NCBI GenBank assembly: GCA_947598395.1
Contig: CANQFG010000005.1
Span: 1-50,021 of the forward strand
Origin: an uncultured Bacilli bacterium
GTDB lineage: Bacteria > Bacillota_I > Bacilli_A > RF39 > UBA660
DNA length: 50,021 nt
Direction of reading: 5' to 3'
Shown here: positions 10,098 to 40,494 of the stretch, one piece after another
How the letters are laid out: the number at the start of each line of letters is the position of its first letter
How positions within the stretch are numbered: the first letter of the stretch is position 1
Program-made: the position numbers and the translations under genes
The notes under the pieces: model-generated
Seen by the model: the letters and a program-made list of their open reading frames with translations, nothing else
Told to the model about the DNA's origin: nothing
The model's database searches: none

Positions 10098-11876
10098 CTA
10101 TTGTGGAGCTAAGGAAATGCGGAAGCCAGCACCATTATAGATAGTGTCACTGTACCTAAAGAAATCGAACTGCCCCGCTATAACTCCGTAGTCGGAAACG
10201 CCGCCTCGATGGAACCACGGGTTCGACGCTTCAACGAAATGGGAACCGTCAGCGTACCAACTGTTGTGCCACCTCCAATTGTTATCAGTATCTTCATAAC
10301 GAGTAAATGGCCCCATCTCTCCTGTTGCATCTCCTAAAATCATTTTGTTATAAGATGTCGTTGTACTATCTTTAGCATATACATCGACAAATCTTTCATC
10401 TAAACTTTGTAATTCCTCTTTACTAAATCCAGTTTTATCTTCACTGGATTCTTGGACATAAGATGCCATATATTCCCAAGCTCCTCCAGACATATCGTAG
10501 ACACCCGTTATATTTCCCGTGGTACTGGCAGTAAATCCATTGAAAGTATTCCATGGAGTATTAAACGGTTCACCATCGCCTGTTTCGCCAAGGATTTTAC
10601 TTTGGTCTATTGTTGGTAACGCCGCATATCCAGTTTTATGTGCACTATTGTTATTAATAGTTAATTCTTTATTTATTCCAAATATTGAATGTGATAGATA
10701 GGCAACGGCTCCCCATTCAGTGTTTTTCATCATATGCGATTGTAAGCTTTCTTTATAATTTTGTGAAGCTTCAAACATATTTTTTACTGTATTGCTTCTC
10801 CACGAATAAACATCTGGTTTTATGATTATATGACTTGAATCATTATTATTTATTCGCGCTTCAACTTCTTTTTTTGCTTCTTTGTATCCCGTTTCAAACT
10901 TTCCAACCCAGAAGCCATCTACTCCAAATGATTTAAATGCAGGATGTGTCATATATTCCCCATTATTACAGTTTCCTATATTTCCACTTTCCATTGGTGT
11001 TGCACATGATACACCTTCAATATCTTCAGTGTCTTTAGTATCAAATTCTATTTCTATAGAATGCACATTATATAATGGATCTTCAACTTCAACATTCCAT
11101 AACCGATATTTATACTTTGGTATCCACACAAACATTGCTTCAATGTTGTCCATGTCAATTTTTTGATTATCTTCTGGTGCTGTCTCACCATCTTTTAAGA
11201 TGACTGCGTTCGCCCATTTTTTATCACAATAATCATACCAACTTTCATTATCTTCGCTTACTTTTGTTACTGTTCCATCATCACTTATTGTAACTGGTAT
11301 AAGCTTATCATTTGTTCCTAAATTTGGCTTTGCTACACTATCACAGTAATTATCCGCAATATATGTACTTGATTCTTTTTCTCTTTCACCTGGATTTACA
11401 GTAAGACTACATTTAAACTTTTCGTCAATTTCTTCTGTACTTACGTTCTTTAGTTCTACTGTTATCGTTCCTTTTCGACTCTCTTGGGCTTTTACTGTTA
11501 AACTTATTGGACTTGCTGTAATTTCCGTATATTTACTAGTTATTTCATCGCTTTCTTGATTTTCAGCATCAAGTCGCTTACATTCGATAGCTACAGTAGC
11601 ATCATATTGTTTACTATTATTCATTACTTGATATTCTAAGATACTTCTATCTCCTTTTTTACTTAATTCTTTGGTTGTAAATGTAATACTCTTTTTGGTT
11701 GTATCAATTAGTTCTTCACTTTTTACTTCACCATCAAGTATTGCTTCACTAAAGTATACATCAAAGTCTTTGGTATCATATCCATAATTTATTGTTCCAT
11801 TTATTACTAGTGATGTTGTTACTGCTGCAAATCCTATGCTCATTAATATTAATGCTACAACTATTCCTTTTTTCAT
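10098..11876 (-). CDS. exported protein with C-terminal C-type lectin/FGE-sulfatase-like fold (paralogue A; candidate DGR target)
   Basis: Signal peptide; HMMKNTEWGAVAYL, GNITGVYDMSGGAWEY, PWFHRGG and terminal GFRISL parallel the FGE-sulfatase/CLec motifs (EW, GLYDMxGNxWEW, RGG, GFR). Confidence 0.8.
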   Translation of the reverse strand: MKKGIVVALILMSIGFAAVTTSLVINGTINYGYDTKDFDVYFSEAILDGEVKSEELIDTTKKSITFTTKELSKKGDRSILEYQVMNNSKQYDATVAIECKRLDAENQESDEITSKYTEITASPISLTVKAQESRKGTITVELKNVSTEEIDEKFKCSLTVNPGEREKESSTYIADNYCDSVAKPNLGTNDKLIPVTISDDGTVTKVSEDNESWYDYCDKKWANAVILKDGETAPEDNQKIDMDNIEAMFVWIPKYKYRLWNVEVEDPLYNVHSIEIEFDTKDTEDIEGVSCATPMESGNIGNCNNGEYMTHPAFKSFGVDGFWVGKFETGYKEAKKEVEARINNNDSSHIIIKPDVYSWRSNTVKNMFEASQNYKESLQSHMMKNTEWGAVAYLSHSIFGINKELTINNNSAHKTGYAALPTIDQSKILGETGDGEPFNTPWNTFNGFTASTTGNITGVYDMSGGAWEYMASYVQESSEDKTGFSKEELQSLDERFVDVYAKDSTTTSYNKMILGDATGEMGPFTRYEDTDNNWRWHNSWYADGSHFVEASNPWFHRGGVSDYGVIAGQFDFFRYSDTIYNGAGFRISLAPQ

Positions 11877-11934
11877 GTCAATCTCTGCTCCTATTTTCCA
11901 TTTTCTCTATTGTATTGCACCCCCCCCAGTTGCA
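11874..11934 (-). repeat. conserved promoter/leader element, copy 1 (G8)
   Basis: TGCAACT-G8-TGCAATACAATAGAGAAAATGGAAAATAGGAGCAGAGATTGACATG; identical to copy 2 over 61 bp. Confidence 0.95.
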
Positions 11935-11946
11935 GTTTTTCAAAAT

Positions 11947-11968
11947 AAAAAAAGACACTTGAGTGCCT
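11947..11968 (-). terminator. intrinsic terminator of the Fic gene, abutting element copy 1
   Basis: AGGCAC-TCAA-GTGTCT followed by a T run on the minus strand. Confidence 0.65.
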
Positions 11969-12001: not shown

Positions 12002-13009
12002 CTATAGCATGTTTTTATAGTACATTTGCCTTCTACTTGTTGGTTTATCAGGAATTGTTTGTTTAACTAAACCCTCTTTAATCGCCGGATCTAAATATGT
12101 CTTTCTCAAAGTTTCTTTTGATTTGATTCCCAATTTATCCATTATTTCGTTGGCTGTCATTGGCACATTTACTTCTAAAACACTTAAAAGTTTATTTATA
12201 TTAATTGCTTCTTCCGTTAATGCAGTAGTAGCATTATTAATAAAATCACTTAATATTTCATCAAACATATTTAACATAAATTCTATAAATAATGTCGAGT
12301 CACCATTTTTATTACATTTATCAATTACATCATAATAATCATTTTGATATTTAAGTAATTGAGATTCAATTGGAATATATTCAAATATATCTTTCCATTT
12401 AGACAATATTACATTTTGCCATAATCGGGAAATTCGACCATTGCCATCTGAAAAAGGGTGAATAAAGACAAATTCATAATGAAAAACAGAAGATAATATT
12501 AAAGGATGAATTTTATTTTTATTTTCTTTCATCCAATTAAATAAGGAGTTCATCAGTATCTTTACTTGATCAGGGGAAGGACAAACATGAATACAGTTGC
12601 CATGTTCATCAAATACACCTTCATCATCTATTCTAAACTTGCCATTATCTTCAATAATTAAATGCATCATCATTTCATGAGCTTTTTTTAAATCTCTTAA
12701 AGAATACGGATTAAACTCTTTTATCATTTCATATGTTTTATAGGAATTTTTTATTTCTTGAATTTCTTTTTGTGGACCAAAGACAAGCTTGCCATCAATA
12801 ACATCTTTTACTTGATTTAAAGATAATGAATTTGCTTCAATTGCCAAAGACGAATGAATGGATTTTATTGTGTTATTTTTTCTAAGTATTGGCATTTTAT
12901 TTAAATTGATATGATTGTTTAACTTACCTAATTTTTCCATTATGCTTGATATATAATTTAACATTTCATTAGTAATTGTAAATGATACATTAAAATCACT
13001 CATGGTCAT
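12002..13009 (-). CDS. Fic family protein with C-terminal helix-turn-helix-like region
   Basis: HPFSDGNGRISR Fic motif; N-terminal SSLAIEAN resembling the inhibitory helix; C-terminal TANEIMDKLGIKSKETLRKTYL. Confidence 0.92.
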   Translation of the reverse strand: MTMSDFNVSFTITNEMLNYISSIMEKLGKLNNHINLNKMPILRKNNTIKSIHSSLAIEANSLSLNQVKDVIDGKLVFGPQKEIQEIKNSYKTYEMIKEFNPYSLRDLKKAHEMMMHLIIEDNGKFRIDDEGVFDEHGNCIHVCPSPDQVKILMNSLFNWMKENKNKIHPLILSSVFHYEFVFIHPFSDGNGRISRLWQNVILSKWKDIFEYIPIESQLLKYQNDYYDVIDKCNKNGDSTLFIEFMLNMFDEILSDFINNATTALTEEAININKLLSVLEVNVPMTANEIMDKLGIKSKETLRKTYLDPAIKEGLVKQTIPDKPTSRRQMYYKNML

Positions 13010-13109: not shown

Positions 13110-14567
13110 TTAATTAGTTGGATGCTTATTTTCACCAGCAAGAACAATCCGAAATCCATTACTAGCTTCTAAAGCACCAGAATGGCGATTAAATTCGAAT
13201 TGTCCGCCATTTGATCCATCTGTATATGGTCCTCCCCGACGAAACCAAGAATTCGAAGAGTCAATAAAATAAGCAATATCGCCATACCAGCCATTGTGAA
13301 AGTCGTTCGAGCTTCCCCCAGTTACATATTGCCTAAAAGGTCCCATTTCTCCGGTTGCATCTCCAAGAATCATATATTGATAAGAGTCACCTGTACTATT
13401 TGCATTATATACATCGTAATAATCATCATTATACATATCATTTAATAATGTACTATTAAATCCACTGTTTCCGTATTTTCCAAATGTATAGCTTGCCATA
13501 GTATCAAAAGCTCCACCCGACATATCATATACACCGGTAATATTCCCAGTGGTACTGGCTATATAACCAACATTTGTATTCCATTGTTGATTATAAGAAT
13601 TATCATCGCCCGTAATTCCTGGAAAAGTTTGCTGATTTGTAGAAGGTAAGGCAGAATATCCAGTTTTATATGAACTTTTATTATTAATGTTTATTTCTCT
13701 ATCTATTCCATACTTTGAATGGGATAGATATGCTACGGCTCCCCATTCCGTATTCTTCATCATATGCGAGTCTAAGTCGCGTTCATAATCGTATGCTGCT
13801 TCAAACATATTTTTGACCGGATTATTTCGCCATGAAAAAGCATTTGGTTTTACAACAATATAACTTGGATCGTTGCTACTGACTTGAGCTTGAGCGGTTG
13901 TTGTTGCATTTTTATATCCTGTCTCAAATTTGCCGACCCAAAAACCATCGACATCAAATGAAATAAATGCTGGATGTGTCATATATTCCCCATTACTGCA
14001 GTTCCCAATATTTCCACTCTCCATTGGAGTTTCACATGATACACCATTTTTTTCAATTGTATTTGTCGTATCGAAAACAATATCTATTGAATGTTTTTGT
14101 TCAATTGAATCTTTTCCAGTGGAATTGACATTCCATAATTTATATTTATACTTTGGTATCCATACAAACATCGATTCTATATTAATCATTTCAATTGCTT
14201 GATTATCATTCGGAATTGGCACACTATCATTTAAGATTACTGCATTGGCCCATTTCTTCTCACAATAGTTATACCAATTCGGATTATTTTTATTTACTTT
14301 TGTTACTGTCCCATTGTCATCTATTATTACTGGTATTATTTTTTCTTCATTTCCTAAATTAGGTTCAGCAACATTATTACATGAATCATTAGTATTACTT
14401 CCCTTACTTTTATATAAATCATTTAAAGCATCACTTACCGTATCGACGTCCCAGTTAATATCACTAGCATTATACTCGATATCTTTCGCATTACATAGAT
14501 TCAGAGCAACGACACTTATAGCACTTAAAGATAGTCCAATTAATATTCCCAAAATTACTTTTTTCAT
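13110..14567 (-). CDS. exported CLec/FGE-sulfatase-like protein (paralogue B, different N-terminal module)
   Basis: Aligns with A/C/D from SCNNVAEPNLG onward (KWANAVIL, MFVWIPKYKY, THPAF, GFWVGKFE, GVYDMSGG, WFRRGG, GFRIVL). The N-terminus is short and unrelated (AKDIEY...WDVDTVSDALNDLY). Confidence 0.8.
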   Translation of the reverse strand: MKKVILGILIGLSLSAISVVALNLCNAKDIEYNASDINWDVDTVSDALNDLYKSKGSNTNDSCNNVAEPNLGNEEKIIPVIIDDNGTVTKVNKNNPNWYNYCEKKWANAVILNDSVPIPNDNQAIEMINIESMFVWIPKYKYKLWNVNSTGKDSIEQKHSIDIVFDTTNTIEKNGVSCETPMESGNIGNCSNGEYMTHPAFISFDVDGFWVGKFETGYKNATTTAQAQVSSNDPSYIVVKPNAFSWRNNPVKNMFEAAYDYERDLDSHMMKNTEWGAVAYLSHSKYGIDREININNKSSYKTGYSALPSTNQQTFPGITGDDNSYNQQWNTNVGYIASTTGNITGVYDMSGGAFDTMASYTFGKYGNSGFNSTLLNDMYNDDYYDVYNANSTGDSYQYMILGDATGEMGPFRQYVTGGSSNDFHNGWYGDIAYFIDSSNSWFRRGGPYTDGSNGGQFEFNRHSGALEASNGFRIVLAGENKHPTN

Positions 14568-14625
14568 GTCAATCTCTGCTCCTATTTTCCATTTTCTCTA
14601 TTGTATTGCACCCCCCCCAGTTGCA
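14565..14625 (-). repeat. conserved promoter/leader element, copy 2 (G8)
   Basis: Identical to 11874-11934. Confidence 0.95.
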
Positions 14626-14713
14626 TTTTTTCTAAAAAGAAAAAAGACTCTAAAAGCCCTTTTTTATATAACAAATAGCAAGCATAGTTTTTATAATTAC
14701 TTTACACATATTT

Positions 14714-25618: not shown

Positions 25619-26320
25619 GTGAATTATATGTTGTTTTTAATCCATATCATGAATATGCTCTCCTTGGCCATGGGTTCATACTCGATCAATGTCTTTCCCG
25701 AACCCCTTCCAAAAGAGGAAGAGGAAGATTTGATCAATAAAATGATGAATCACGATATCGAAGCACGCAATAAACTCATCGAACATAATCTCCGCTTAGT
25801 AGCCCATATCGTCAAGAAATTTGAACGTATCGAAAATAACACCGATGATCTCATCAGCATTGGCACCATCGGTCTAATTAAAGGCATCGATTCCTTTAAA
25901 CCGGATAAGAAAAATCGCCTCACGACTTATGTGGCACGGTGTATCGAAAACGAAGTCTTAATGCACTTTCGGTCCAACCGCAAGAATAATAACAACGTCT
26001 CCTTAAACGATACGATCGGCTATGATAAAGATGGCAACGAGATAAACCTCATCGATGTCATCAAGGCCAATTCCGAAGATCTAATCGAGGACCTGCACTA
26101 TAAGGAGAACAAGGAAGCGATCAATACCTATCTAAAAGTCTTAACGCCCCGGGAACGGCAGATCATCACGAAGCGGTACGGCCTTTATAATAATGATGAA
26201 CTAACCCAAAAGGAAATCGCCAAAGAATTAGGAATTTCCCGCTCATATGTCTCTCGAATTGAAAAGCGGGCCATATCGAAGATGTATCGCGAATTTAAGA
26301 AGAATAAAAAAGAGCTCTAA
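25619..26320 (+). CDS. sigK: sporulation sigma factor SigK (pro-sigmaK), uninterrupted
   Basis: FPEPL, ARNKLIEHNLRLVAHIVKKF, DDLISIGTIGLIK, CIENEVLMHFR and TQKEIAKELGISRSYVSRIEKRA; hydrophobic pro-sequence. Confidence 0.9.
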   Translation: MNYMLFLIHIMNMLSLAMGSYSINVFPEPLPKEEEEDLINKMMNHDIEARNKLIEHNLRLVAHIVKKFERIENNTDDLISIGTIGLIKGIDSFKPDKKNRLTTYVARCIENEVLMHFRSNRKNNNNVSLNDTIGYDKDGNEINLIDVIKANSEDLIEDLHYKENKEAINTYLKVLTPRERQIITKRYGLYNNDELTQKEIAKELGISRSYVSRIEKRAISKMYREFKKNKKEL

Positions 26321-36387: not shown

Positions 36388-38172
36388 TTAATTAGATGGT
36401 GCTAAGACTATGCGGAAACCAGCATCGCCATTGACTGCACCAACATATCTATTAAAATAAAATTGTCCAGCTACAACTCCGTGTAGGTATGCACCGCCTC
36501 GAGCAAACCAAGGTAAAATATCATCAGCTAAATATGACCAGTCAGCATACCAACGATTGTGCCATCTGTTTTCATTATCTTCATCTTCATAATTATCAAA
36601 TGGGCCCATCTCTCCGGTGGCGTCACCAAGAATCATTTTATCGTATGAATTAAGTTTGATTTCTTTATCATATACATCAAAATATTTTTCATCTATTGTC
36701 TTCAATTCGTCTTTGCTAAAAGTACTTTTATCTTTTTCAGATTCTGGCACATAAGCGGCTACGTATTCCCCAGAACCGCCGGACATATCATATACTCCAG
36801 TCGTATTCCCCGTGGTACTTGCTGTAACTCCATTTTCTGTATTCCATGCTGTGTTAAATGGTACCCCATCTCCTAAAACGCCCAAATATTTACTTTGATC
36901 AGCTGTTGGTAAAGCGGCATATCCGGTTTTTAGTTGATTATTGTTATTAATTGTTACTTCTTTATTTATTCCAAATATTGAGTGACTTAAATATGCTACT
37001 GCTCCCCATTCCGTATTTTTCATCATATGTGATTGTAAATTTTCTTCGTATCCTTTTGCGGCATTAAACATATTCTTTACTGTTAAATTACACCATGAAT
37101 AAACATCTGGTTTTATTATTATATGACTAGTTTCGCTATTGTCTTGTTGGGCACCAGCTTTACTTTGAGCATCTTTATATCCCGTTTCAAATTTGCCAAC
37201 CCAGAAACCATCAACATCAAATGATTTAAATGCGGGATGTGTCATATATTCCCCATTAGAACAATTTCCAATTTTTCCACTTTCCATTGGCGTTGCACAA
37301 GAAACACCATCTATATCAGTTGTATCTTCAGTATCAAATTCTATTTCTATGGAATGAACTGTATATAATGGATCTTCAACTCCAACATTCCATAATCTAT
37401 ATTTATATTTTGGTATCCACACAAACATTGCTTCGATATCGTCCATATTTATTTGTTGGTCGTCATCATAACTTTTTAATGGTTCACTTTTTAAAATAAC
37501 GGCATTTGCCCATTTTTTATTACAGTAATCATACCAATCTTCATTAGCTTTATTTACCTTCGTAACATTTCCATTTTCATCGATTGTTACTGGAATTAAT
37601 TTTCCATTAGTTCCTAAATTAGGCTTTGCAACATTATTACATGAATCTTCAGCAATATACTCGTTTGCTTCTTCTTCTCTTTCTGTTGGTGTTACCGTTA
37701 AACTACATTTAAATTTTTCTTCTATATCTTTAGTACTTACTTTCTTTAACTCTACTGTTATTGTCCCCTTCCGACTCTCTTGAGCTTTTATTGTTAAACT
37801 TGCAGGACTTGGCGTTATTTCCGTATATTCACTGGTTTGAGTTTCAGATACATTTCCACCTGACTCTAGTCTTTCACAATTAATTGCTACTTCCGCATCA
37901 TATTGTTTGCTATTGTTCATTACTTGATATTCTAAAATACTTCGATCTCCTTGTTTACTTAAATCTTTTGTTGTAAATGTTATGCTTTTTTTAGTACCTT
38001 CATCAATATACTCATTATGGACTACACCATCAAGTATAGCTTCACTAAAGTATACACCAAATTCATCACTATCATATCCATAATTGATTGTTCCATTTAT
38101 TACTAGTGATGTGGTTACAGCTGCAAATCCTATACTCATTAAGATTAATGCTATTATTATTCCTTTTTTCAT
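36388..38172 (-). CDS. exported CLec/FGE-sulfatase-like protein (paralogue C)
   Basis: Closely similar to paralogue A along its length, with the same motifs; ends PWFARGG...GFRIVLAPSN. Confidence 0.8.
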   Translation of the reverse strand: MKKGIIIALILMSIGFAAVTTSLVINGTINYGYDSDEFGVYFSEAILDGVVHNEYIDEGTKKSITFTTKDLSKQGDRSILEYQVMNNSKQYDAEVAINCERLESGGNVSETQTSEYTEITPSPASLTIKAQESRKGTITVELKKVSTKDIEEKFKCSLTVTPTEREEEANEYIAEDSCNNVAKPNLGTNGKLIPVTIDENGNVTKVNKANEDWYDYCNKKWANAVILKSEPLKSYDDDQQINMDDIEAMFVWIPKYKYRLWNVGVEDPLYTVHSIEIEFDTEDTTDIDGVSCATPMESGKIGNCSNGEYMTHPAFKSFDVDGFWVGKFETGYKDAQSKAGAQQDNSETSHIIIKPDVYSWCNLTVKNMFNAAKGYEENLQSHMMKNTEWGAVAYLSHSIFGINKEVTINNNNQLKTGYAALPTADQSKYLGVLGDGVPFNTAWNTENGVTASTTGNTTGVYDMSGGSGEYVAAYVPESEKDKSTFSKDELKTIDEKYFDVYDKEIKLNSYDKMILGDATGEMGPFDNYEDEDNENRWHNRWYADWSYLADDILPWFARGGAYLHGVVAGQFYFNRYVGAVNGDAGFRIVLAPSN

Positions 38173-38231
38173 GTCAATCTCTGCTCCTATTTTCCATTTT
38201 CTTTATTGTATTGCACCCCCCCCCAGTTGCA
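38170..38231 (-). repeat. conserved promoter/leader element, copy 3 (G9)
   Basis: Same as copy 1 except one substitution and one extra G. Confidence 0.95.
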
Positions 38232-38272
38232 TTTTTTTGACAAAGATAACCTACTTATGTTAATATGTATTT

Positions 38273-38613: not shown

Positions 38614-40389
38614 TTATTTAGATGGAGCAAGTGCGATGCGGAAGCCATCGCCTACACGGGCTGCGCCAGTAAACGTATCGAAATAGAACTGTCCAGCTAC
38701 AACTCCGCTAAAGCAATAGCCGCTTCGATAGAACCAAGGGGACGACGCGCCAGCGAAAAATGAATTGTCGGAATACCAACGATTGTGCCCTCTTTTTATT
38801 TTATCTCCATCTTCATAACTATCGAAAGGACCCATTTCTCCTGTTGCGTCTCCCAAGATCATGTTCTTATATGTTGTCGCACTAGAACCTTTAACATATA
38901 CATCAACATATCTTGGATCTAATTTTTTCAATTCTTCAGCTTGAAATTCACTTTGATCATTTGAAGCTTCTGCTACATAAGCCGCCATACTCTCCAATGC
39001 TCCACCAGACATATCATAAACACCGGTAATATTTCCCGTCGTACTAGCTGTTACTCCATTTCCCGTATTCCATCCTGTATTAAAAGTTCCATCATCACCT
39101 ACTTCACCAGGATTTTTACTTTGATCTGTAGTGGGTAAAGCTGCATAACCTGTTTTGCGTTGATCATTGTTGTTAATCGTTACTTCTTTATTTGTTCCAA
39201 ATATTGAATGAGATAGATAAGTTACTGCTCCCCATTCCGTATTTTTTAACATATGGGAGTTTAATGTGCCTTCATATCCTTTTGCGGCATTAAACATATT
39301 CTTTACCGTTAGCTTTCTCCAAGAGTAAGAATTTGGTTTTATAATTATTTTATTGGAATCATTACTATCTACCTCAGCACTTGTTTTATCAGTTGCGTCC
39401 TTATATCCAACTTCAAATTTGCCTATCCAGAAGCCATTACCACCAAAAGCTAAAAATGCTGGATGCGTCATGTATTCTCCATCATTACAATCGCCTAAAG
39501 TTCCACTGGTTTCTGGAGTTATGCATTCTTTATCATTAATATCTTCCGTATTTTTAGTATCAAATATTATCTCTATACTATGTTTTCCAACTTCTGTATT
39601 ATCCGTCTCAACATTCCATAATTTATATTTGTACTTTGGTATCCATACAAAATAACTTTCAATTGATGTATCTTGTATAACTTCACCGACATTTGGTAAA
39701 TTTGCTCCATCATTTAAAATGACCGCATTCGCCCATTCTCTCTTACAATAGTCATACCAATTAGTATCCGTTTTTTCTACACGCGTTGCATTACCTTCTT
39801 CATCTAGTACTACCGGTATTAATTTATCTTCATCTCCTAAACTTGGTATTCCTATATCCCGACAACTATTTTCAGCTAATATTGGATCTTTTAGTTCTTC
39901 ACTTCCTACAGGATTTACTGTTAATTCACAAGTAAATTCTATATCAATTGGTTCTACTGTTACTTTCTTTAATTGAACACTTACAGTTCCCGTTTCTCTC
40001 GTCTGAGCTTTTATAGTTTTATTTGTCATATCATTATTTATAGTTACATAATCGTTAACCACTACTGAATTAGATTCATTGGGTGTACATTCTATTTCCA
40101 CTGTTGCATCATATTGAGTACTATTATTTGTTACTTCATATTCCAAGACACTTATATCACCTACTTTACTTAAATCTTTTGTTGAATATTTTATTGATTT
40201 TCTAGTATCAGGATCTATTACTTCATAACTTTTATCAACTTCATCTACTACGGCTTTACTAAAATATATTTGATAATCTTCTTCATTAAAATTTATATTT
40301 ACTCTTCCCGTGATTGTTAGTACTGTAGCTACTGATGCAAATCCAATAGTTAGAAATAATATAGTTAATAATACCCATCTCTTTTTCAT
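38614..40389 (-). CDS. exported CLec/FGE-sulfatase-like protein (paralogue D; candidate DGR target)
   Basis: Same domain motifs as A/C with a more diverged N-terminal half; ends PWFYRSG...GFRIALAPSK. Confidence 0.8.
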   Translation of the reverse strand: MKKRWVLLTILFLTIGFASVATVLTITGRVNINFNEEDYQIYFSKAVVDEVDKSYEVIDPDTRKSIKYSTKDLSKVGDISVLEYEVTNNSTQYDATVEIECTPNESNSVVVNDYVTINNDMTNKTIKAQTRETGTVSVQLKKVTVEPIDIEFTCELTVNPVGSEELKDPILAENSCRDIGIPSLGDEDKLIPVVLDEEGNATRVEKTDTNWYDYCKREWANAVILNDGANLPNVGEVIQDTSIESYFVWIPKYKYKLWNVETDNTEVGKHSIEIIFDTKNTEDINDKECITPETSGTLGDCNDGEYMTHPAFLAFGGNGFWIGKFEVGYKDATDKTSAEVDSNDSNKIIIKPNSYSWRKLTVKNMFNAAKGYEGTLNSHMLKNTEWGAVTYLSHSIFGTNKEVTINNNDQRKTGYAALPTTDQSKNPGEVGDDGTFNTGWNTGNGVTASTTGNITGVYDMSGGALESMAAYVAEASNDQSEFQAEELKKLDPRYVDVYVKGSSATTYKNMILGDATGEMGPFDSYEDGDKIKRGHNRWYSDNSFFAGASSPWFYRSGYCFSGVVAGQFYFDTFTGAARVGDGFRIALAPSK

Positions 40390-40448
40390 GTCAATCTCTG
40401 CTCCTATTTTTCATTTTCTCTATTGTATTGCACCCCCCCCCAATTGCA
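40387..40448 (-). repeat. conserved promoter/leader element, copy 4 (G9)
   Basis: Same as copy 1 except two substitutions and one extra G. Confidence 0.95.
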
Positions 40449-40461
40449 GCTTTTTAGGCAT

Positions 40462-40490
40462 AAAAAAAGGCACCATCTATGTGGTGCTTT
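40462..40490 (-). terminator. terminator of the 40495-42084 gene, abutting element copy 4
   Basis: AAAGCACCA-CATAGA-TGGTGCCTTTTTTT on the minus strand. Confidence 0.75.
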
Positions 40491-40494
40491 CCCC

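Follow-up and report, generated by a model that had tools for sequence, protein, structure and literature searches.

Slippage as a means of switching genes is already known from porA, tp0126, and vlp. porA of Neisseria meningitidis and tp0126/tpr of Treponema pallidum have a poly-G tract between the -35 and -10 boxes, where loss of the 17-bp spacing lowers transcription and run length varies within isolates over 7–11 G; the DNA analyzed here is alike in having poly-G in the promoter spacer of predicted surface-protein genes (PMC7864442). However, porA and tp0126/tpr are single genes or few paralogues of diderm pathogens, whereas the present system comprises about 60 copies with a weak -35 box in an uncultured monoderm commensal known from sequence alone.

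Vlps are repetitive lipoproteins with tandem repeats in the C-terminal region, a handful per genome. In Mycoplasma hyorhinis (vlp) and M. mycoides (vmm), each paralogous surface gene is described as having its own transcript and a slippery promoter tract (PMC10502178). The gene-by-gene tract layout is similar here, and congeners of the source species even have poly-A tracts of similar length. The proteins nevertheless do not belong to the Vlps, as the tracts are G rather than A (0 runs of A12 or longer), the type-A N-terminus has no Cys and no canonical lipobox, and the products have folded Ig-like and CLec domains. The vlhA genes of M. gallisepticum are likewise many paralogues, and the conserved promoter of each has a variable repeat of which one length alone is considered active; instead of a spacer homopolymer, the repeat is made of GAA triplets and lies about 40 nt ahead of the start site (PMC6258824). 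In the gut commensal Bifidobacterium breve, G-tract slippage likewise controls surface adhesion structures (pili), although by intragenic frameshift at two loci (PMC9187656), whereas here the tracts lie in promoter spacers at dozens of loci.

The CLec/FGE fold predicted here is that of the variable proteins TaqVP, TvpA, and Mtd of diversity-generating retroelements, and the source genome has a reverse transcriptase, a template repeat, and an Avd-like gene. A literature search found no slippage promoter on a retroelement-fed family, nor did it find the scale, the lineage, the G/A convergence, or the retroelement link, with most subscription journals outside its coverage. For such tracts in the source lineage, no published report was found among main texts, with subscription journals thinly covered. 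Taken together, the comparisons below indicate that the repeated leader is probably a slippage-controlled sigma-A promoter present in about 60 copies.

The leader cassette in the window and in the genome

The window is a stretch of 50,021 nucleotides from the genome of the uncultured bacterium, a member of the Bacilli in RF39/UBA660. It has four copies of one leader cassette, all on the minus strand, with the following features:

11930..11935, minus strand: likely -35 box of copy 1, CTGCAA, weak and without T at position 1 (register from homology with congeners and the genome's own -35 profile)
11920..11927, minus strand: G8 tract of copy 1, spacer 15 bp
11909..11914, minus strand: likely -10 box of copy 1, TACAAT, 5 nt behind the tract
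11888..11892, minus strand: ribosome-binding site of copy 1, AGGAG, 11 nt before the ATG
11953..11968, minus strand: terminator-like hairpin and T-tail, following the Fic gene and directly before copy 1
14565..14626, minus strand: cassette copy 2 (ATGCAA 14626-14621, G8 14611-14618, TACAAT 14605-14600, ATG 14567)
14640..14665, minus strand: terminator-like hairpin before copy 2, -8.0 kcal/mol
38170..38232, minus strand: cassette copy 3, spacer 16 bp (ATGCAA 38232-38227, G9 38216-38224, TACAAT 38210-38205)
40387..40449, minus strand: cassette copy 4 (CTGCAA 40449-40444, G9 40433-40441, TACAAT 40427-40422)
40466..40494, minus strand: terminator-like hairpin before copy 4, -9.2 kcal/mol

A sequence-only reading had listed run lengths of G8, G8, G9, and G9, with the run as the only indel among the copies, and both statements hold: from TGCAA to ATG, the copies differ by three substitutions and at a single indel site, the G run. 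The distance from (A/C)TGCAA to TACAAT is 15 bp with G8 and 16 bp with G9, as that reading had calculated. The linker between the -35 box and the tract is 2 nt here, such that G8, G9, and G10 give 15, 16, and 17 bp, respectively. The sequence TGC(A/G)A stands on either side of the run as a direct repeat with a spacing of 15–16 bp, and the cassette of the source species has no extended -10 TG. The claim that copies 1 and 4 directly follow a terminator is correct and extends to copy 2, whereas no hairpin was found within 60 nt before copy 3. Between copies 1 and 2 lies a Fic-domain gene (12002-13009; Pfam Fic and Fic-like_C).

The source genome has 1.30 Mb and 35% G+C. Its G/C runs number 285 (G5), 21 (G6), 3 (G7), 31 (G8), 37 (G9), and 1 (G10), and the decay in run length predicts fewer than one run of 8 in the genome. 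The G runs, earlier called striking for AT-rich DNA, are thus far beyond chance. Most runs of 8 or more G (62 of 69) belong to the cassette, 56 in complete cassettes and six in cassettes cut by a contig end. By run length, the 58 complete cassettes comprise one G5, one G7, 22 G8, 33 G9, and one G10, and only one of the 58 has a 17-bp spacer. The figure of about 60 loci refers to the 58 complete and six end-cut cassettes, with two pairs being one locus each. A hairpin with a T-run is present upstream in 51 of 60 testable copies, compared to five of 180 shuffles. The exact flanked motif was found in none of 40 relatives and had no match in metagenome contigs.

Two findings weigh against the proposed slippage-controlled promoter. 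Of the full-length family genes, at least four lack a cassette. Moreover, four genes with a cassette (C2:5576, C6:18599, C12:9927, and C73:1898) have a leader of 145–170 nt, in which there is another TTGTAA-17-TATAAT-like site that lacks a tract, along with a short inverted repeat (ACAAT..ATTGT). In addition, G9 tracts with similar flanks occur in or before membrane-protein ORFs outside the family (C1:56548 and C7:30970), whose sequences give the impression of acyltransferases.

Probable promoter type and the proposed effect of tract length

Spacers of ordinary promoters in the source genome peak at 17 bp. Among 431 tract-free upstream regions, TTGAC[AT]..TAnnnT pairs occur with spacers of 15, 16, 17, and 18 bp in 0, 4, 32, and 5 cases (controls about 1), and TTGnnn..TATAAT pairs in 3, 14, 43, and 4 cases (controls 1–2). 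In congeners, the tract before the same gene family lies in the layout TTGACA/TTGAAA/TTGCAA-ATC-Gn-TATTA-TAnnnT, where 5 nt likewise separate the tract from the -10 box. Among 180 clean congener matches, 157 have G8 (16 bp), 10 have G7, 10 have G6, and three have G9 (17 bp); the pattern required at least six G, and 19 matches with no TTG box or an impure tract were left aside. The over-represented homopolymer of at least 8 bases lies between a -35 and a -10 box, of which the -35 box of the source species is weak and assigned by homology. Two points fit the sigma-A reading less well: the -35 hexamer starts with T in none of 64 copies, and ordinary promoters with [ACG]TGCAA are enriched at no spacing. 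The canonical TTGACA/TTGAAA and TAnnnT boxes around the tract of congeners nevertheless strengthen the proposed promoter-spacer position and indicate that the cassette is likely a sigma-A-type promoter rather than a sigma-E/K promoter. The proposal that a 17-bp optimum would need G10 gains from both the genome's own spacer statistics and the congeners. A consensus promoter scan does not list the cassette, as expected from its spacer and -35 box.

The sequence-only reading had left the sigma factor uncertain. The resemblance of ATACA(A/T)T to a sporulation -10 box remains, yet the doubt is now largely settled toward sigma-A. Promoters of sigma-E and sigma-K have a CATA-type -10 box (CATACAnT) with an ATA or AC -35 box at a fixed spacing. 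A mother-cell sporulation promoter, with phase-variable spore-surface proteins as its products, would fit a genome that holds spoIVA and sigma factors looking like E, K, F, G, and H by sequence, and a G11 tract would imitate the GCATA-15-CATA layout before spoIVA. We give this reading very little probability, as all 58 complete copies have A or G, and never C, in front of ATA, the matching upstream place has no ATA at G8–G10, a tract-free version of the motif is absent from the genome, and congeners have plain sigma-A boxes; against the usual consensus, the cassette is not of the CATA type, and it differs from the spoIVA upstream region. Another reading has a small chance of being right, in which the tract varies and controls expression by way of the distance from a regulator site to the -10 box, a model proposed for Neisseria opc, and not through the -35/-10 spacing. 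In its favor are the TGCRA repeat flanking the run, the lack of an extended -10 TG, and the absence of a TTG -35 from the left repeat copy in all 64 copies. However, congeners have canonical -35 boxes in the same layout and no repeat, the repeat spacing of 15–16 bp is out of helical phase, and the exact flanked motif is missing from all 40 relatives. An ECF-sigma promoter (TGCAAC) was also considered and rejected, as there is no -10 box that matches the consensus and the motif is absent before the ECF gene.

Regarding sporulation genes, SpoIIID was not found in a search of the genome. The window has only one long gene on its plus strand, which is sigma-K-like and has an uninterrupted frame (25619-26320). 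The match to the SpoIVA ATPase is split between two adjoining contigs (C25:257-619 and C12:19523-19876), with the pieces several kb apart, which suggests an insertion in spoIVA.

If the cassette is a sigma-A-type promoter with the boxes assigned above, which RNA polymerase presumably uses, output would likely be off at 15 bp (G8), weak at 16 bp (G9), and full at 17 bp (G10). It is plausible, at about even odds, that most copies are OFF, as had been suggested. Copies with G9 may be partly on because some ordinary promoters here use 16 bp (14, compared to 43 at 17 bp, for TTGnnn..TATAAT). Two points weigh against this scheme. With G8 copies roughly as frequent as G9 copies, there is no single resting state. 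Tracts of congeners are 87% G8, with contractions (20) exceeding expansions (3), a pattern that is also compatible with G8 as the working state.

Possible tract-length variation and putative slippery tracts across the lineage

Data on length variation come from contigs only, including those of one rabbit-gut sample, whose four runs contain the window (Logan contigs X1–X4). In the assembly, all 56 contig overlaps are 77 nt. Contig C18 ends with 69 nt, G8, and another 69 nt. The first of these 69-nt stretches also opens C32, where it is followed by G9 and the same downstream bases. This is the geometry of a k=77 bubble, with one locus assembled as both G8 and G9, and lends support to the idea of slippage in the promoter spacer; library slippage or a recent duplication may also explain it. 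Six contigs stop exactly on the eighth G, of which five share at most 28 upstream bases with another copy and the sixth continues as G9 in C45. Among the Logan contigs, records stop on the eighth G of window copy 1 in X2, of copy 2 in X1 and X2, and of copy 4 in X2. Read-through is found for copy 1 in X3 (as G8), for copy 2 in X3, and for copy 4 in X1 and X4 (as G9); copy 3 is crossed by no listed piece. Illumina reads can run on in G past a G tract (PMC9187656), which could make contigs stop at G8. For the congener motif, five of 20 clusters vary in length across samples, with several clusters being paralogues of one genome. Indel counts from contig alignments, in which all paralogues are pooled, were left out. 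The source genome encodes MutS, and the window has a MutL-like gene.

Slippery tracts are found beyond the source species, in relatives that are kin and not independent, such that the counts carry no test statistic. At least 10 runs of G8 or longer are present in 25 of 120 genomes of the bacterial family, one per genus (raw counts, G+C uncontrolled). Five genomes of other genera were opened, with 25–30 loci each. In G121, spacers are 18–19 bp in 23 of 30 tracts and 17 bp in one, and are thus above the optimum. In G133, spacers of 15–20 bp have perfect boxes, with 17 bp in five of 15. In G135, most spacers measure 19–20 bp and go with extended -10 boxes, a pattern that a simple 17-bp rule leaves unexplained. 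G098 has G8 in 28 of 29 loci and no TTG box; these 28 tracts are preceded by AAACATATGTTCG, which we take to resemble a Firmicute LexA box, and lie upstream of another paralogous family. In G137 and part of G133, runs of G9–G13 lie within the first 6–8 codons of paralogous genes and are mostly out of frame (in frame in two of 23 and two of nine, respectively), constituting a frameshift version of the switch. Downstream of the tracts in these five genera, in loci of only 1.5 kb, N-terminal profiles of the family had no matches and the CLec profile matched only in G137 (7/23) and G133 (5/26). Among the congeners, G005, G012, G016, and G018 each have 9–34 runs of A12 or longer, compared to none in the source genome, and 22 of 30 examined loci with A13–A21 tracts precede the same gene family in the same promoter position. 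The presence of different slippery sequences in one promoter position argues that mutability, and not G itself, is what is selected and kept.

These patterns bear on a rival explanation, in which gene duplication has spread the cassette as a fixed promoter, with G8 and G9 reflecting neutral drift or sequencing error and having no effect on expression. The 50–90 nt downstream are identical among many copies, such that duplication accounts for the number of copies; the tract is mostly fixed at G8 in congeners, and Illumina data are described as error-prone at G tracts (PMC9187656). We nevertheless regard a fixed promoter as quite unlikely, considering that poly-A tracts have independently taken this position before the same family, that other genera have frameshift versions, and that 25 of the 120 sampled genera have 10 or more G8+ runs, all of which points to selection for slippery tracts. 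Moreover, modal lengths vary by genome (8, 8–9, 10, or 10–11), which is unexpected from one error process. In the slippage-controlled promoter favored here, the G run likely slips during replication, presumably in a reversible manner.

The downstream gene family and the retroelement

The four cassettes of the window precede paralogues of 485–594 aa, three of which share 54–72% identity with gene 1:

10098..11876, minus strand: gene 1, 592 aa, hydrophobic N-terminus, Ig-like domain, CLec/FGE-fold domain
13110..14567, minus strand: gene 2, 485 aa, second N-terminal type and CLec/FGE domain
36388..38172, minus strand: gene 3, 594 aa, 72% identical to gene 1
38614..40389, minus strand: gene 4, 591 aa, 55% identical to gene 1

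The family domain is present in 77 ORFs, which account for 7.8% of the source genome. Family matches occur in 19 of 21 congeners, with at least 10 in most, up to 62, and a minimum of seven. The structural model of gene 1, with the first 22 residues removed, has a pLDDT of 83 and consists of Ig-like and CLec/FGE domains. Its best structural match is TaqVP (Z 18.4, rmsd 3.6, 252 aligned), and other close matches are PvdO, TvpA, and Mtd. Pfam gave a sub-threshold FGE-sulfatase match for gene 1 and none for genes 2–4, and NCBIfam gave nothing useful for the window genes. The basic-hydrophobic N-terminus together with the Ig-like and CLec folds predicts surface proteins. We infer an adhesion role for the family from the model, with a shared fold in itself showing no function.

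A diversity-generating retroelement is located at C11:1-2470, behind a family gene that bears a G9 cassette. It includes a reverse transcriptase (cut by the contig end), an Avd-like gene (120 aa), a MutS-I-like gene (131 aa), and a template repeat. The adjacent C11 family gene differs from the template at nine of 34 adenines and at none of 106 other positions. A gene on C21 differs at 14 of 34 adenines with two mismatches at the 106 other positions, such that its differences are nearly confined to adenines, and may be a remote target of the retroelement. The window genes differ at 15–17 of 34 adenines and at 15–40 of about 106 other positions; because many non-adenine positions differ from the template, they are not demonstrably current targets, and the gene 1 model does have the C-terminal CLec fold of such targets. 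These comparisons suggest that the retroelement introduces variation into the binding end of one or more family proteins.

In the mechanism proposed here, about 60 paralogous genes for predicted adhesins each stand behind a copied leader cassette, likely a sigma-A promoter, and each would likely be switched independently, with an upstream terminator tying each gene to its own switch. The retroelement, located elsewhere in the genome, would diversify the binding end of at least one of them, and the genes in use would be a random selection from a large repertoire that is still diversifying. A fuller model, which is possible but which we hold only tentatively, is a two-layer adhesin switchboard: the retroelement would write CLec binding sites and duplication would spread them behind insulated slippery promoters, giving about 60 independent switches just off the 17-bp optimum, with each cell showing a random few. 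Sister species would have rebuilt the switch from poly-A or as a frameshift, and the system would rank among the densest contingency-locus systems of commensals.

If true, an abundant group of uncultured gut Bacilli would spend about 8% of its genome on a randomly switched surface repertoire, at a scale usually linked to mycoplasma pathogens. This would hint at targets of binding or evasion such as host surfaces, antibodies, phages, or partner cells. Metagenomes would then offer dozens of naturally replicated switches on which slippage and spacer rules could be measured, and the assembly breaks at tract sites would be accounted for.

Finally, C2:21666-23698 and C56:3-3196 have tandem arrays of three and five short Ig-like-only proteins, respectively, the former with an in-frame G9. 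These are possibly fibre or stalk subunits.
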